A DNA stretch of 64,000 bases from Escherichia phage KEP1: the sequence record PP047755; one strand, given 5' to 3'. Below the pieces are notes generated by a model. That model ran no database searches. It saw only the letters and a program-made list of their open reading frames with translations, and was not told the origin of the DNA. Made by a program: the position numbers and the translations under genes. Below are positions 37,025 through 47,918 of this stretch, piece after piece (within the stretch, counting starts at the first letter, position 1; every line of letters starts with the position of its first letter).

Positions 37025-37521
37025 TCATAAGCTTCTCCGTGATTTGTAAACTCTTTATGGAGTTCTTCTCTTTTCTTTTTGACAACTAATTCAGCCTCAG
37101 CGATAGAGTCAAATAAACCTAGATGATAGCAAACTTTATTATGCTTGACTTGTGCAGCCCATCTACCTCTTTGCTTATGGTAATATACACCCTTCACACC
37201 AGATTTATTATCTCTTCTTTTGGCTGCATTACAGTTATTGTCTGACCTACTACACTCTCTCAAATTGTCGAACCAGTTGTCGTGCCTGATACCATTCTTA
37301 TGGTCAACAAATTTTGGTAGGTATCCTTTCATATACAAGAATGCCAGTCTGTGTGCTGCATATCTTTTCCCGAAGAGTTTTATGTAGATATAACCACTAT
37401 GATGTTTAAGACCCGCTACTGAGCCAGCTTTGGCCTTACCTTTTCTATTAACTAACCAAGTAAAGACCCCTGTTTCGGGGTCATAGTGCAGGTATTCTTT
37501 AAGAGTTTGTTGGGTTAACAT
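37021..37521 (-). CDS. HNH homing endonuclease-like protein with AP2-type DNA-binding domain
   Basis: LHYDPETGVFTWL, HRLAFLYMKG, VDHKNGIRHDN, GVKGVYYHKQRGRWAAQ; paralogue of 47385-47918; start taken at MLTQQ (ORF extends to 37545). Confidence 0.7.
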   Translation of the reverse strand: MLTQQTLKEYLHYDPETGVFTWLVNRKGKAKAGSVAGLKHHSGYIYIKLFGKRYAAHRLAFLYMKGYLPKFVDHKNGIRHDNWFDNLRECSRSDNNCNAAKRRDNKSGVKGVYYHKQRGRWAAQVKHNKVCYHLGLFDSIAEAELVVKKKREELHKEFTNHGEAYE

Positions 37522-38545
37522 TTGGTGTCCATCCATACTTATCAAAAGTGAAATCGTCTTTCTTATTTCTTTCCTGATAAGCTAAGAAAAAGTGTTGCTG
37601 CATTAACTCTAAAGGTGTTCTGGTAATTGTTTGACCATCCCACGAGACATAAGTGTATGACTCTTTCTTAGCATAAAGCTCATAAATTGCATCAAGACAC
37701 TCTTTGTAAGTGGTTTTACCTTCAAGGGCTTTCATTATAGTAACCTTACCAACACCCTTTAAACCGAAATAATTATCCGCATTATCACCAGCCACGGCTT
37801 GATAGCAAAGAAATTTAAAACCTACCCCAACTGTCTTCTTAGCTTTGGGTGTCGATTTTATTGGGCAATCCCAAATTTCACCAACGTTGTTATCAGCAAT
37901 GAAAATCAAAGGTGACTTTTCATAGGTCATATCAATGCAGTAAGTCCCTTCAGCTTGGCGAAGGTCTTTATCAATACTCATCAAGGCGGCCTTTTTACCC
38001 ATCTTTTCAGCTTTAGCAATAACGATAGAGTCGGCTTCAAATCCATCAAGAATTAGTTTGAACTCTGGTCTTGACAGAAGATATTCACGGCAAGCAACTA
38101 AGTGTGTTGGTGTGACAGCATCTTTACGGTTACCTTGATATTGGTGCTCAAGACCTTTAATGTCTTTATGTTTGTGTACACCTTTCTCTGTTAAGTAACC
38201 TACCCAAGTTCTTTCTTTACCAACAACCTTAAGCCATTCCTGAAGAACCTGTTGAGTAGCCATGATAGCTTCTTTTTCACTCTTAGCTTCTTTCCAAGTC
38301 TGTCTTTCCCATTCATCTTCATCAAATGCTAGGCCAAGCTCTTCTACAAGGATTCTCTGGTCTGCTAACCATCTTGCGGCATCTTTTGCATTATCAAATG
38401 GTTCAGATTCTTCTGCTGTGAGTTTATTGACATATTTATATTTTGCTTTCTCAACTACACAAGCACCTTTATAGGCAATACTATCAGAGTCAATAAAGAC
38501 ATGTGTAACTGAATCGGGAAGTTTTGTTAGTGTATACTTCTCCAT
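37499..38545 (-). CDS. flap endonuclease / 5'-3' exonuclease (RNase H-like)
   Basis: N-terminal HVFIDSDSIAY and GFEADSIVIAKA...LMSIDKDL acidic clusters typical of FEN/T4 RNase H. Confidence 0.7.
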   Translation of the reverse strand: MEKYTLTKLPDSVTHVFIDSDSIAYKGACVVEKAKYKYVNKLTAEESEPFDNAKDAARWLADQRILVEELGLAFDEDEWERQTWKEAKSEKEAIMATQQVLQEWLKVVGKERTWVGYLTEKGVHKHKDIKGLEHQYQGNRKDAVTPTHLVACREYLLSRPEFKLILDGFEADSIVIAKAEKMGKKAALMSIDKDLRQAEGTYCIDMTYEKSPLIFIADNNVGEIWDCPIKSTPKAKKTVGVGFKFLCYQAVAGDNADNYFGLKGVGKVTIMKALEGKTTYKECLDAIYELYAKKESYTYVSWDGQTITRTPLELMQQHFFLAYQERNKKDDFTFDKYGWTPNVNPTNS

Positions 38546-44413: not shown

Positions 44414-46556
44414 ATGGAAAACGTAGATTTTAAAAACTTACATTTAGTTGGTGATACAGAAACTGATGGTTTACTCCTTGAGTTCACTAAAGTGCACGTA
44501 ATGGCTTTCGCAGACTATAAATCTGACGATGAAGAGCCACCTGTATGGGTCTTTACAGATGAGCCTATCCTCGGTCACAAGTATACCAAGTACATTAAGG
44601 GTGGTTTGCGTGAAGGTGTTGAGTTTGCGTTAAAGGCGAAACGTCTTTGCATCCATAATGGTCTCGGTTATGACTGGTGGGTTTTCAATCACATTGCACC
44701 TGATTTATGGAACTTTGATAATCCAAAGTGTAAACCGTGGAGTAATTTCTTTCAGGATTCTCTTATCCAGTCTCGTGTTCAGTGGATGGATAGGCCAACT
44801 CCAAAGGGTTATAAAGGTGCTCATGGCTTGGCTGCATGGGGTGCTCGTGTTGGTGTTCGTAAACCAGAGATTGAGCATTGGGGTGTATGGAATGCAGAAA
44901 TCTTCACTCGTGTTGTAGAAGATATTCGTATTAACGCCAAAACTAAACGGGCACTTGATAATGAGTATCTCAAGCTTAAGAAGTGTGGCATAGACACTTA
45001 TGAAACCTATATGCGAGCTAAAGAAACATCTTTCTGGATGAGTCAACAAGCTATCAATGGTTGGAAAGCTGATAAAGAGCTTATGGAGTTTCATGTAAAG
45101 GAGCTTGACAAGTTGACTAATGAGCTTGCTTCAGAGGTTGAACCACATCTACCTCCAACTATTAAGACCAAAGGTAAAGTCACTGGAGAAGAATTTGCAA
45201 AAGCTTGGAATGAGTATGTTGAAACATTTGGTCATGCAGATGGACTGAAAAGAATTACCAAGTATCCTAAGACAAAGTATCGTCAACAGGTGCGTAACGG
45301 TGAGATGCAGACATACGAAATCAAGCCATTTGGTAAGCCAACTACAAAGATTTTTAACATTGAAAAGAGAAATTGCTATACACCAACCAACTCTGTAACT
45401 GGTGAAGAGTACAAGGAAGGTTTTGTAGCAATGAAGGATGCTCGTGCAATTTGCAATGAGTTGAATGCAAAGATTGGTAAGAAGTGCAAAGACTGGAAGC
45501 CAGTAAAAACAGTTAAAACTGTGAAGTACTATAACAGCCATGTCGTTAACCACTTTGAGCTTGAGTCAAGTCGCTACACAGGTTTGATTGATGCACCATA
45601 TACACCAATTGAGTTCGAAGTTTCTCGTATGACTCAGGTAGCAGTTGTTAAAGACTACTTGAAATCAGTTGGTTGGATTCCAGATGACTGGAACTATAAG
45701 AAAGACTCAGATGGCCGTCCTGTTAAGGTTTGTCGTTTCAAAGACAACAAAAAGAGGATTACTAAGCACCCTAAATGGGATGAGATGGTTGAACGGTGTG
45801 GTTTGAGTTATGTTGAACATGAAGGTGTACAGTACATAGAGCATAACTGGTCTGTTAAGAAATACACAGATTTGCTTGAACCTTGCTTAATCCGTACTTC
45901 ACCAAAACTTACTGAATCATCTTATGATACGATTGAAGGTGAGCTTGGACAGAAGATTGCTAAGTACTATACTTTGATGCACAGACGTAGAACTATTGAG
46001 AACTCAAAGGATGATGAAAAAGGTTGGTTGAACCAGATTCGTCCTGATGGTCGCCTTAGTGCTGGCGCAATGGTGTTTGGTACTTCAACTGGACGTATGA
46101 CACAATATGGTATTGTAAACGTACCGTCTGGTGCTGCTGTCTATGGAGCACCTATGAGGGAGGTGTGGATTTGCGAGGAGGGGACTAATATCGTTTCAGT
46201 TGACCAGAACTCTGCACAGCTAGTTCTTCTTTGTAACTTTATGGGTGACAAAGACTTCACTAAAGCGGTAACTGAGGGTAAAGAGTCAGTAGAGTTCACT
46301 AAGCAAGATGACGGTAGATACTATTGCAAGCATCTCGATAAGTATCTTAATCCAGAAACTGACAAGTATCTTCGTTATGATGCTGAGAACGACCTCTACG
46401 AAGTCTACACAGGGACTGATGCGCATACACTGAACAGTATTTACTTTGGTCTGAACAAGGAAGAAGACATTGTTCGTTGTAGGGAGACACAGGATGAGGA
46501 ACTTCTCCACGAGATTACAAAAGGTCGTAAGAAAGCCAAAAATGGCATTTATGCGT
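44414..46556 (+). CDS. family A DNA polymerase, exon 1 (3'-5' exonuclease domain through start of motif B)
   Basis: GGGAG ribosome-binding site before ATG 44414; DnaQ-like exo motif LVGDTETDGL; motif A VDQNSAQLVLL (cf. DYSQIELR); frame ends in RKKAKNGIY, the start of motif B. Confidence 0.8.
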
Positions 46557-46824
46557 CAGTGGCGCATGTAAAACGTTGTGAATTGCTGGAAGCCTAAGTC
46601 TGTAAAGATATGGTAATCAGCAGCGAAGCCTCTTAAGAGGAACGTTCAGAGACTATCGAAAAGCATACTTAACGTATGAACTGAGTAGAGTAGGGTGGTA
46701 AGCTAATGACCATTCCCAAGTGCAACGGTAGTATTACTACTACGTGATATAGTCCGACACTCCGTAGAAATGCGGAGAAGTTCATAAGAGAACTGGTACA
46801 CCTTGCGAGTGTATTGACCAGATG
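46557..46824 (+). ncRNA. group I self-splicing intron (268 nt) interrupting polymerase motif B
   Basis: Classical P/Q/R/S core elements: AATTGCTGGAAG (46581-46592), AATCAGCAGC (46615-46624), GTTCAGAGACTA (46644-46655), GATATAGTCC (46746-46755); P1 pairs exon ATGCGT with GCGCAT (46562-46567) with U-G at the splice site; terminal G at 46824. Confidence 0.75.
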
Positions 46825-47381
46825 TATTGTTCGGTGCAGGTGATGAGAAGTTTGCAAAAACTATCAAGGCATCATCTACGGAAGAAGGTGCATTGACTAA
46901 ACAAACTTACTATATGCGTCTGCCAAAGATTAAGAAGTTACTTGATAGCTTAGAAGCCGATTTTAAGGCGTCTAAAAAGGCTCTGGAAGAGGTTTTTGGG
47001 AAGAATTCTTCAATTGCTAAAGGTGGTTATATCAGGGTCGCTGGAGCATGGATATGGTGCAAATCTCCACATAAACTACTGAACTACCTCCTGATGAGTT
47101 CGGAAGCACAGATTCAGAATGAGGCCATCAACCTAGCAGCAAGAAAAGCCTGTGAAGATGGCCTGACAAAACTGAATGCTCGAAAACCAGCTATCGGAGC
47201 AAGGTTACTTCTGGCATATCACGATGAAAATAGTTGGGAATGTCCAGAGGGTATGACACATGATATGAAAGCAATTGCTGACTGGATGTATGGACAAGCT
47301 TCAAAAAACTTAGGTTTGAGGAAAGAAACACTTGTAACTGGTACAGCAAAGGTTGGTAAGAGCTGGTATGAGGTACATTGA
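46825..47381 (+). CDS. family A DNA polymerase, exon 2 (rest of motif B and motif C)
   Basis: Spliced junction reads IYALLFGAGDEKFAK, same length as T7 IYGFLYGAGDEK; motif C LLAYHDENSWE. Confidence 0.75.
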
Positions 47382-47384
47382 TTA

Positions 47385-47918
47385 ATGGATTTAATTTTAC
47401 AAAAACGTTTAAAGGAGCTGCTGCACTATGACCCCGAAACAGGGGTCTTTACTTGGCTTCGTAGAGAAGGTAAATCAAGAGCTGTTAGTGTTTTTAACAG
47501 TAATTATGCAGGAAAGGTGGCAGGTAATATCCAGACTGATTCAAGTGGTCATAAACAGATTAGTATCTATTTTGACAAGAAAGCACATAAAGCACACAGA
47601 CTCGCATGGCTTTACGTGTATGGCAAGATGCCAAAAGGTATCATTGACCATATCAACGGAGACTCACTTGACAACAGGATTGTAAACTTAAGGGAAGCAG
47701 ATGACTTTCAAAGTGCTTGGAATAAAGGTAAGCTAGTCACCAATAAATCTGGGTACAAGGGTGTAAGTCTTAAGAAGAAGTCTGGTAAGTGGGTCGCACA
47801 GATAAGTTATAGAGGTAAGAAGATGTTTTTAGGTTATCATGACACACCTGAAGAAGCCCATAAAGCTTACTGTAAAGCTGCTGTGAAACTCCACGGAGAG
47901 TTTGCAAAACTAAGTTGA
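47385..47918 (+). CDS. HNH homing endonuclease-like protein with AP2-type domain, directly downstream of the intron-containing polymerase
   Basis: LHYDPETGVFTWL, HRLAWLYVYG, IDHINGDSLDNR, GYKGVSLKKKSGKWVAQ; paralogue of 37021-37521. Confidence 0.7.
   Translation: MDLILQKRLKELLHYDPETGVFTWLRREGKSRAVSVFNSNYAGKVAGNIQTDSSGHKQISIYFDKKAHKAHRLAWLYVYGKMPKGIIDHINGDSLDNRIVNLREADDFQSAWNKGKLVTNKSGYKGVSLKKKSGKWVAQISYRGKKMFLGYHDTPEEAHKAYCKAAVKLHGEFAKLS

Follow-up and report, generated by a model that had tools for sequence, protein, structure and literature searches.

Phage introns of subgroup IA2 occur in genes of nucleotide and DNA metabolism, as in td, nrdB and nrdD (sunY) of phage T4, where td and nrdB hold an ORF in the P6 region and natural isolates include copies that lack the ORF or whose endonuclease is defunct. 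Bonocora & Shub reportedly described IA2 introns in the polymerase genes of phages PhiI and W31 in 2004, and Bonocora & Shub and Zeng et al. are said to have described collaborative homing for the T3/PhiI polymerase and S-PM2 psbA systems in 2009. In E. coli Pol I numbering, the intron sites of polymerase genes fall at 881 (PhiI, W31), 674 (Pf-WMP3, SPO1, SP82, Bastille) and 676 (phiL7), and subgroup IA2 is recognized by helices P7.1 and P7.2 lying between P7 and the 3' strand of P3 and joined by GUA (PMC3428280). The concept of collaborative homing, in which an intron and a separate endonuclease gene are paired, has been reviewed (PMC3984707). Closest to the locus considered here is that of Salmonella phage Meda, whose genome announcement reports an intron without an HNH gene in the DNA polymerase gene (PMC6486253).

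We analyzed a 64,000-nucleotide stretch of Escherichia phage KEP1 (PP047755; hereafter the window, with all features below on its + strand), a member of Felixounavirus (Felix O1-like). The intron that it carries is already known, having been reported for the sister phage Meda (MH586731), where the same element is 268 nt long, 98.1% identical, at the same site and likewise without an ORF, and where the polymerase is given in GenBank as a joined CDS. The Meda announcement is silent on structure, splice sites and subgroup and reports no experiment; otherwise nothing of substance differs.

Reading the window's sequence, we consider it very probable that positions 46557-46824 are a small group I intron without a gene, which splits the polymerase at motif B and is spliced out. 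That the polymerase gene is split by a group I intron in motif B had been proposed in a first-pass annotation, and it is borne out by the intron-less alleles and by the covariance-model scan which that annotation had suggested as a check: Rfam RF00028 matched the 268-nt element with 64.2 bits, where the gathering score is 50, at E = 5.5e-14 in a search of the full 64-kb window, and the match covers all 253 model positions (1-253). This was the sole Rfam match across the 64-kb window, and a tRNA scan of the window found zero tRNAs. The RF00028 alignment misplaces P1 (match start 46494) and ends at P9 (46777); the true intron ends were taken from exon comparison, the site being empty at the exact point in HY02, Felix O1 and wV8. 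Within the 268-nt gap the Rfam alignment places the core elements P, Q, R and S, also claimed earlier, in that order at ~46581-46591, 46615-46624, 46644-46655 and 46744-46755. The intron has no internal ORF, as had been stated: besides the exon 1 read-through, no + strand ORF of at least 30 aa was present, and the 268-nt copy holds no homing endonuclease gene of its own.

In the family A DNA polymerase gene, exon 1 (44414-46556; ORF list and Pfam DNA_pol_A) comprises 714 codons and the first base of a Leu codon, begins at an ATG (44414) with GGGAG upstream, ends in AAT GGC ATT TAT GCG T, and has a product labelled 'DNA polymerase' in GEP101 and other records. Exon 2 (46825-47381) completes the Leu codon with its remaining two bases and adds 184 codons before the stop; it opens with TA TTG TTC GGT GCA GGT GAT GAG, covers DNA_pol_A profile positions 218-381 and carries YHDE (motif C). 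The first-pass annotation had exon 1 stop at 46597 directly after RKKAKNGIY, and here only the stop (TAA 46595-46597) stands, with 14 more codons (ASVAHVKRCELLEA, nearly all intron) lying between that motif and the stop. It was right that the frame resumes at 46827, where a TTG begins an open stretch that ends with the stop at 47379-47381.

A U precedes the predicted 5' splice site (T46556), and the G before the predicted 3' splice site is the last intron base, G46824, with exon 2 starting at 46825; T46556/G46824 is the only pair of sites that satisfies both the group I rules and the amino-acid sequence of intron-less phages. The predicted ligated exons read TATGCGT/TATTGTTC (slash, junction) and the predicted junction peptide of the spliced polymerase is NGIYALLFGAGDEK, with NGIYA/LLFGAGDE identical to the sequence of intron-less relatives; intron-less HY02 reads NGIYALLFGAGDE, equal to the spliced product at the junction, and the tblastn match runs unbroken over the junction in many intron-less phages. 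Splicing at these sites would give an 899-aa family A polymerase that scores 51.7 bits against Pfam DNA_pol_A (cut-off 34.3), whereas the separate halves score 16.9 and 25.2 bits, both under the cut-off. The spliced protein combines the profile match with motif B (RxxAKxxxYxxxYG) and motif C (HDE) of family A. A motif B of exactly the T7 length would be restored, as had been predicted, in a gap-free junction alignment to T7 DNA polymerase residues 517-621, where RKKAKNGIYALLFGAG aligns to T7 RDNAKTFIYGFLYGAG. The junction falls at T7 G527/F528, with the intron splitting the Leu codon that matches F528 in motif B (O-helix) between its first and second bases, a site that would lie near position 764 in E. 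coli Pol I numbering. An exact look-up of the predicted spliced polymerases of the window and Meda in a 15-billion-sequence protein collection found neither present.

We built a structural model by hand that contains P1, P3-P10, the P3/P7 pseudoknot and P7.1/P7.2, without P2. As modelled, this helix layout is that of subgroup IA2, GUA linking P7.1 to P7.2 in the interval from P7 to the 3' strand of P3. P1 (46550-46568) pairs exon UAUGCGU (46550-46556) with GCGCAUG (46562-46568), confirming an internal guide 5 nt into the intron, and includes a U46556.G46562 wobble at the splice site; its pairs were checked and are constant in 10/10 intron-bearing alleles. The P1 loop CAGUG (46557-46561, intron bases 1-5) is the P10 guide for exon 2 UAUUG (46825-46829), with five possible pairs, two of them G.U, and TATGCGT/TATTGTT is present in every intron-bearing allele, the whole string in no intron-less allele. 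The 5' strand of P3 (46574-46580) follows the Rfam alignment, and P4 (P and Q elements; 46584-46589 with 46617-46622) and P5/P5a with its GUAA tetraloop (46592-46614) come from that alignment and from RNAfold of the P4-P6 domain; P6/P6a with a UUAA loop (46623-46645) is placed by the Rfam alignment, RNAfold and alignment with ORF-bearing variants. P7 (R and S elements; 46649-46656 with 46749-46755) is given by Rfam, domain folds and RNAalifold of 13 introns, P7.1 (46664-46678) and P7.2 (46693-46717) by domain folds and by their covariation among 30 related loci, and the GUA linker (46690-46692) stands before P7.2 with 11 extra bases between P7.1 and GUA. The 3' strand of P3 (46721-46727) comes from the manual model, P8 (46728-46743) from that model and from RNAalifold of 13 introns, and P9 with its GAAA tetraloop (46760-46777) from the Rfam alignment and the manual model, while P9.1 (46779-46794) and P9.2 (46795-46815), invariant in the genus, are helices of the energy-model fold alone. 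Folded whole by minimum free energy, the intron does not take a group I topology, since that method has no means of representing the pseudoknot; the domain folds and the Rfam alignment were used in its place.

Evaluating this model across the genus, all 83 of its 83 base pairs are standard in 10/10 variants, a figure that is partly circular because the structure was drawn from this same sequence; as a control, sliding the partner strand by 1-3 columns left 25-50% paired. Six pairs vary in the genus and all stay paired, two of them changing on both sides (P6a, where U-A becomes C-G, and P8), such that genus-level covariation rests on two pairs because the ribozyme is almost invariant there; P1, P10, P9.1 and P9.2 never vary and are uninformative for or against. 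Among 13 related introns, RNAalifold independently recovered P7, which is conserved, and P8, which covaries strongly with 3-8 compensatory sequences per pair. In 30 loci with the core motif GTTCAGAGACTATCGAAAAGCA, P7.1 and P7.2 differ in sequence yet each forms a perfect hairpin, a covariation judged by eye since the MAFFT alignment of distant relatives used for RNAalifold misaligned both.

On this reading, the polymerase gene would be transcribed as a single pre-mRNA in which the intron would fold into P1, P3-P9, P7.1/P7.2 and the P3/P7 pseudoknot. Free guanosine would then attack the phosphate 3' of U46556, held in P1 as the U.G wobble, and the released end of exon 1 would attack after the terminal G46824 while P10 aligns exon 2, yielding a joined message for one 899-aa polymerase (RKKAKNGIYA-LLFGAGDEK). 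Both the splicing and its autocatalytic nature are what we would predict from sequence.

Two other readings of the split gene must be weighed against this one. It is very unlikely that the intron is a dead, non-splicing relic and that polypeptides of 727 aa and ~184 aa assemble into an active polymerase, even though most database records annotate two 'DNA polymerase' CDSs and a literature search for splicing results on any Felixounavirus, by RT-PCR, RNA-seq or in vitro assay, turned up none ('intron' mentions in PMC4837284 and PMC8594841 were irrelevant or generic and set aside as evidence of Felix O1-like splicing). Such two-CDS annotations are the output of automatic gene callers. The break would fall inside the O-helix, between two catalytic tyrosine positions, and the unspliced transcript would encode a truncated 727-aa protein in which half of motif B and the entire motif C are missing. 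Exon 2, for its part, has no ATG or GTG start, ribosome-binding site or promoter of its own: its frame opens only after TGA 46815-46817, the sole start codon is TTG 46827 with no Shine-Dalgarno-like run seen upstream, and no promoter-like site was found in or near the intron. The ribozyme is also at least 97% identical across variants, compared with ~70-80% in the exons and ~77% in the endonuclease gene, and every substitution in it keeps its base pair, which would be unexpected for a relic. At least 33 database records of plaque-forming phages hold the same 268-nt form in this presumably essential gene.

Splicing at an alternative 3' site after G46821, raised in the first-pass annotation, would preserve the frame as stated there, and cryptic 3' sites are sometimes used by group I introns. 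It would produce a 900-aa polymerase with one extra residue (GIYAYVLFGAG), and this residue (IYAYVLF) is present in no intron-less homologue (0/26 intron-less alleles examined). Only the G46824 junction gives the gap-free T7 alignment, and P10 (CAGUG with UAUUG) sets the start of exon 2 at 46825, leaving use of G46821 with little probability. Removal of the intron at T46556/G46824 thus stays our preferred reading.

Across Felixounavirus, the same nucleotide position exists in four states. It is empty in Felix O1, HY02 and wV8, is occupied by the ORF-less 268-nt form in at least 33 database records (the window's type), by a form of ~800 nt whose P6 carries a homing endonuclease gene of the Endonuclease VII type in 36 records, and by a 311-nt remnant after deletion of the endonuclease gene in Tf. 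In the sister copies, the P6 loop encodes a 161-aa Endonuclease_7 protein (PF02945, 2.7e-19), and the endonuclease-gene series runs from intact (LinBro) through a 22-nt deletion (VpaE1) and the 311-nt remnant (Tf) to the ORF-less window and the empty site. The intron-less site sequence reads TATGCACTGCTGTTCGG / TATGCACTGCTGTTCGGTGCAGG in the wV8 type and TACGCCCTGTTATTTGGAGCCGG in the HY02 type.

Exon identity around the site points to movement. Compared in 30-nt bins, the exons of the window and HY02 share 87-100% identity, which falls to 77% and 80% in the two bins that flank the site, whereas window and LinBro exons are mostly 57-87% identical (~400 nt on the exon 1 side nearest the site and all of exon 2) but 97% and 93% in the two 30-nt bins flanking the intron site. 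Identity thus switches within 30 nt of the site, and both presence/absence and co-conversion are observed; a few exon bases per side accompany the intron in polymerase alleles that have diverged, and therefore the intron moved between alleles. Selection for P1/P10 pairing could explain part of the flanking-exon signal. We infer that the intron reached the window's allele by DNA-level transfer that converted less than 30 nt of exon per side, the agent likely being the Endonuclease VII-type enzyme from P6 of sister copies or ordinary phage recombination, and that the 268-nt copy would now be unable to promote its own spread.

A free-standing endonuclease gene with HNH_3 and AP2 domains (47385-47918; Pfam 9.1e-15 and 3.1e-11) starts 3 nt past the polymerase stop, and in relatives this slot is either empty or filled by one of four or more diverged alleles. 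As an addition to the main reading, one could suppose that the ORF-less intron and the HNH-AP2 gene form a collaborative (trans) homing pair, in which the endonuclease would cut intron-less polymerase genes at the motif B site and repair would then copy the intron into them, which we regard as improbable. Consistent with such a pair, the free-standing gene adjoins the interrupted gene (3 nt) and an HNH gene is downstream in 5/5 related ORF-less loci plus the window, against 4/13 endonuclease-bearing introns. Intron-less HY02, L006 and L007, which have the same HNH allele, show ~12 substitutions clustered exactly at the site, synonymous except in one codon, that could be cleavage-resistant recoding. 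Set against this, the site beside Meda-type or Tf-type HNH genes in intron-less L008, L009 and L025 is identical to that of HNH-less L020, L022 and L027, and therefore those alleles need no protection there. The 268-nt form with the window-type HNH gene is also one close lineage (96-97% over 3.7 kb), which may be simple linkage. Over the final ~250 nt of the polymerase gene, identity drops sharply between phages with different HNH alleles (window versus Meda), which hints that the HNH enzyme acts near its own insertion point, although the link to HNH type is not clean. An association of HNH gene with site state, sought across 37 tabulated loci and eight more database records, was likewise not clean. 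The comparative data on trans cleavage are thus ambiguous for the window-type HNH gene and negative for the Meda and Tf types, and from sequence the HNH-AP2 gene would seem to have no convincing functional link to the intron.

A further and equally doubtful proposal is that the 268-nt form is an ancestral intron that never held an ORF, that the ~800-nt form is the same ribozyme after an Endonuclease VII-type gene invaded P6, and that HNH-AP2 might mobilise the ORF-less form. The window intron's short P6 hairpin, GAAGCCUCUUAAGAGGAAC, resembles GAAGCCUUUAAAGGAAC of a distantly related intron that lies in an RNA polymerase gene. Were this proposal true, living isolates of the genus would preserve the states before and after a mobile intron arises, and the origin of mobile introns and collaborative homing could be tested by crosses of sequenced coliphage and Salmonella phage isolates.

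For annotation, the consequence of the preferred reading, that of a spliced group I intron, is that intron-bearing genomes should carry one joined polymerase CDS; ~96 database genomes have this intron, and most list the polymerase as two genes or hypothetical pieces. The element is real but ordinary and leaves the current understanding of group I introns unchanged. Its site, in the O-helix, brings to four the intron sites of family A polymerase genes, those studied experimentally being 674, 676 and 881, and the Felixounavirus series (empty, ORF-less, intact, decaying, remnant) would be a convenient system for the study of intron homing.

Compared with the known systems, the introns of PhiI and W31 (T7-like) and cyanophage Pf-WMP3 likewise lie in phage family A polymerase genes, are IA2, lack P2, have GUA between P7.1 and P7.2, and hold their endonuclease gene, if any, in P6/P6a, as do the window's sister copies (PMC3428280). 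The window site (motif B, T7 F528) differs from the 674, 676 and 881 sites. Introns of the PhiI/W31/Pf-WMP3 type encode I-HmuI-like HNH enzymes and were shown to self-splice, whereas the window's sister copies carry an Endonuclease VII-family gene and self-splicing of the window intron is a prediction. N4-like coliphage KarlSchell_Bas89 (PQ850613, joined CDS) also has a group I intron in polymerase motif B that shares part of the P3-P5 core sequence with the window, but it has an endonuclease ORF in the intron and belongs to another phage family; its site was considered as the same and rejected, being reconstructed 6 nt downstream (AFN/YGAGD, in a Tyr codon) with a junction inferred from motif length. 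In the T3/PhiI polymerase and S-PM2 psbA pairs, as in the window, an ORF-less intron stands beside a free-standing endonuclease gene; there the endonuclease was shown to cut the insertion site (PMC3984707), whereas the window's genes are at most a candidate pair, and for at least two HNH alleles the comparative data do not favour such cleavage. Finally, the T4 introns differ from the window's in host gene and endonuclease family, and in Felixounavirus, by comparison, the whole series of the homing cycle, with its gain, decay and loss, is visible within one genus.

Over the 3.7 kb surrounding the intron, the window shares 96-97% identity with many genomes of Felixounavirus, the Felix O1-like myophages that infect Escherichia and Salmonella; Escherichia phage L27 is the top match (97.3%). 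Most of these records show a pair of 'DNA polymerase' CDSs here and, after them, an HNH endonuclease. The ORF list likewise holds two plus-strand polymerase frames, from ATG 44414 to TAA 46595-46597 and from TTG 46827 to 47381. The first-pass annotation had joined these across splice sites 46556/46825, and protein matches to intron-less alleles bear out that junction, with T46556 as the final exon base and G46824 as the final intron base of a 268-nt intron (46557-46824). The frame does stop at 46597 as first read, though not directly after ...GIY, as 14 further codons, nearly all of them intron, precede the stop. In phage HY02 the polymerase gene is uninterrupted and its site reads NGIYALLFGAGDE, protein identical to that of the window spliced at 46556/46825, while the codons differ (GCC C|TG TTA TTT in HY02 versus GCG T|TA TTG TTC in the window). 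A junction-spanning 109-aa peptide also aligns in one piece in many intron-less phages, including wV8, Moogle, phiEa21-4 and BASEL phage JohannRWettstein, and the Felix O1 gene is an uninterrupted 2721 nt, in accord with the genome paper's statement that introns are absent (PMC3185647). Shifting the splice sites one base either way yields AVLF or ASLF, and the alternative 3' site first raised at G46821 yields AYVLF; no homologue matches any of these. The 899-aa spliced product scores 51.7 bits against Pfam DNA_pol_A (cut-off 34.3), whereas the unspliced halves fall below the cut-off at 16.9 and 25.2 bits. T7 DNA polymerase is the top match among solved structures, with GRKKAKNGIYALLFGAGDEKF aligned gap-free to its TRDNAKTFIYGFLYGAGDEKI; this puts the intron one base into the codon that corresponds to T7 F528, between Y526 and Y530 in the O-helix.

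A covariance-model scan, whose failure had been set beforehand as a refuting outcome, supported the group I assignment: Rfam RF00028 matched 46494-46777 with a score of 64.2 bits against a gathering score of 50 (E = 5.5e-14), the sole Rfam family matched within the 64-kb window, and its alignment recovered the proposed core elements in order as P AAUUGCUGGAA, Q AAUCAGCAGC, R GUUCAGAGACUA and S GUGAUAUAGUCC. From this alignment and domain folds, we drew a secondary structure by hand. It comprises P1 (46550-46556 with 46562-46568, 7 pairs with U.G at the splice site), P3 (46574-46580 with 46721-46727), P4 (46584-46589 with 46617-46622), P5/P5a (46592-46614, GUAA loop), P6/P6a (46623-46645, UUAA loop), P7 (46649-46656 with 46749-46755, with a bulged A and crossing P3 as the group I pseudoknot), P7.1 (46664-46678), P7.2 (46693-46717, preceded by GUA), P8 (46728-46743), P9 (46760-46777, GAAA loop), P9.1 and P9.2 (46779-46815) and P10 (46557-46561 with 46825-46829), with no P2 and with 46824 as the terminal G. 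All 83 pairs in this manual model are standard. When 10 Felixounavirus variants were aligned, every cell paired, versus 25-50% once the 3' partners were shifted by 1-3 columns, a comparison that is partly circular because the structure was drawn from the window sequence and most pairs are invariant. The six variable pairs all remain paired, two of them through double-sided changes (P6a U-A to C-G, P8 C-G to U-A). More distant relatives lend the structure independent support: the core string GTTCAGAGACTATCGAAAAGCA recurs in 30 viral contigs, which keep P7.1 and P7.2 as perfect hairpins of quite different sequence, and RNAalifold on 13 of them recovered P7 along with P8, the latter with 3-8 compensatory sequences per pair.

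Judged from sequence, the intron is very probably a functional self-splicing element. Our literature search found no published splicing assay for any Felixounavirus, and the indirect case is strong. The break falls mid-O-helix in a presumably essential enzyme, and separate expression of exon 2 is implausible, its frame opening only past TGA 46815-46817 with TTG as the only start codon, and with neither a Shine-Dalgarno-like run upstream nor a promoter-like site nearby seen. Splicing is further argued for by plaque-forming phages with exactly this 268-nt form, represented by no fewer than 33 database entries, and by a ribozyme conserved at 97% identity or more where, in the same phages, flanking exons are only 70-80% and inserted endonuclease genes ~77% identical, with all ribozyme substitutions preserving the helices.

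Across Felixounavirus, one nucleotide position exists in four states: empty (Felix O1, HY02, wV8; 26 of 37 sampled loci), a 268-nt form with no ORF (the window, GEP101, Meda, BPS15S6; 33 database records), a 780-805-nt form (LinBro, EC6, VpaE1, BPS15Q2, JH2; 36 records) and a 311-nt form (Shigella phage Tf, NJ12, GEC_vB_NS7). The long form has an unchanged ribozyme and an extended P6 holding a 161-aa Endonuclease VII family ORF (PF02945, 2.7e-19), which in VpaE1 carries a 22-nt internal deletion. Because the 311-nt form retains the extended P6 stem together with the ORF leader and tail, it derives from the long form by deletion, and the states resemble the well-known cycle in which an endonuclease gene is gained, decays and is lost. 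The short P6 of the 268-nt form differs from that of the long form and resembles that of a distant relative (L042), so the 268-nt form may never have borne an ORF rather than being a deletion product. Three P8 haplotypes (GUAGUAUUACUACUAC, GUAGCAUCACUGCUAC and GUAGCACCACUGCUAC; window 46728-46743 in the A2 alignment) each occur in both 268-nt and ~800-nt forms, which points to recombination between forms inside the intron.

Signs that the intron has moved come from exon sequence at the insertion site. Against intron-less HY02, the window exons are 87-100% identical per 30-nt bin except for 77% and 80% in the two bins touching the site; against LinBro, over the ~400 nt of exon 1 nearest the site and exon 2, they are mostly 57-87% per bin, and here the two site-touching bins are the exception at 97% and 93%. 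Every intron-bearing allele reads TATGCGT|TATTGTT, and intron-less alleles read TATGCAC|TGCTGTT or TACGCCC|TGTTATT, with two exceptions matching in the exon 1 half only. This switch in identity fits DNA-level transfer with short co-conversion tracts, and also selection keeping P1 and P10 paired, two readings that are inseparable here. HY02-type intron-less alleles (L002, L006, L007, L014, L019, L021 and L026) carry ~12 substitutions clustered at the empty site, TACGCCC|TGTTATTTGGAGCCGGAGA, at positions equivalent to window 46533-46556 and 46825-46841, synonymous except within one codon, and in HY02 itself the remainder of the gene is nearly identical to the window. An HNH gene of some kind lies downstream in all seven, and the cluster may reflect recoding of the site to resist cleavage, or a short tract acquired from a different lineage.

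Three bases past the polymerase stop, Pfam identifies a 177-aa HNH_3 plus AP2 protein gene (47385-47918), in a slot that in relatives either is vacant or carries one of four or more alleles whose mutual identity is only 40-50%. Collaborative homing pairs, in which a free-standing endonuclease mobilises an ORF-less intron in trans, are on record from T7-like phages and from cyanophage S-PM2 (PMC3984707), and the window likewise has an ORF-less intron with a free-standing endonuclease gene adjacent. That these two collaborate is an improbable explanation in our assessment: an HNH gene follows every ORF-less intron examined versus 4 of 13 endonuclease-bearing ones, but the 268-nt form with the window-type HNH represents one closely related lineage, the window-type HNH also accompanies the intron-less HY02 polymerase, and Meda-type and Tf-type HNH genes adjoin intron-less polymerases whose site sequence equals that of HNH-less phages.

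The post-polymerase slot (window 47130-47918; compare loci L003, L008, L009, L014 and L023) is a hot spot. Between the window and Meda, exon 2 identity stays at 97-100% in every bin 30 to 300 nt beyond the splice site and falls to 43-83% over the final ~250 nt of the polymerase gene, a drop that looks like endonuclease-driven mosaicism. One locus (L026) combines a Meda-type HNH with a window-type polymerase end, so the link between HNH gene and gene end is not clean. A second HNH-AP2-type endonuclease gene lies on the minus strand at 37045-37536 (~42% protein identity to the post-polymerase one), giving at least two free-standing family members in the window.

The intron is already reported, though in one sentence only: the Meda genome announcement mentions an intron without an HNH gene in the DNA polymerase gene (PMC6486253), and the Meda GenBank polymerase CDS is a join. 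For a related phage, a second paper includes two introns in the list of non-coding RNAs (PMC9951933). To this we add the precise splice junction, verified on intron-less alleles, a secondary structure with the subgroup it implies, the site mapped to T7 F528, and the four-state polymorphism with its conversion-tract signature, all of them incremental for an already known element of a familiar type. Among database records, MG065664 and MG065668 ('Campylobacter phage A132/A126') are 96.4% identical to the Felixounavirus region over 3.7 kb, with the A132 record at 99.6% across the intron; such identity being unexpected for Campylobacter phages, this suggests that they are mislabelled or contaminated. 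ARAGORN found no tRNA genes in window 1-64000, and as Felix O1-type genomes carry ~22, the tRNA cluster evidently lies outside it.

The closest ribozyme relatives beyond the genus sit in other genes, including the Gamaleyavirus RNA polymerase gene of Escherichia phage vB_EcoP-ZQ2 (72.8% over 209 nt), the polymerase gene of a crAss-like phage (cr3_1), and an apparent single-subunit RNA polymerase split in L042 (IMGVR_UViG_3300000369_000011). Exon 1 of the latter ends ...ELDASA (GTGCGT|) and its guide GGCGCAC nearly equals the window's GGCGCAU, which hints that related introns colonised similar short targets in different genes. IA2 introns have a classic location in the family A polymerase genes of phages, where they occupy E. 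coli Pol I position 674 in SPO1, SP82, Bastille and Pf-WMP3, 676 in phiL7 and 881 in PhiI and W31 (PMC3428280), with others in many Bastillevirinae (PMC11878797); positions 674, 676 and 881 all differ from the window site in motif B. N4-like Escherichia phage KarlSchell_Bas89, annotated with a joined polymerase I CDS, has an endonuclease-bearing intron in the same motif, its reconstructed site RDNAKTFIYAFN|YGAGDAKLG probably 6 nt downstream of the Felixounavirus one. With P7.1 and P7.2 joined by GUA and P2 absent, the window intron has the layout reported for IA2 introns in the polymerase genes of PhiI, W31 and Pf-WMP3 (PMC3428280).
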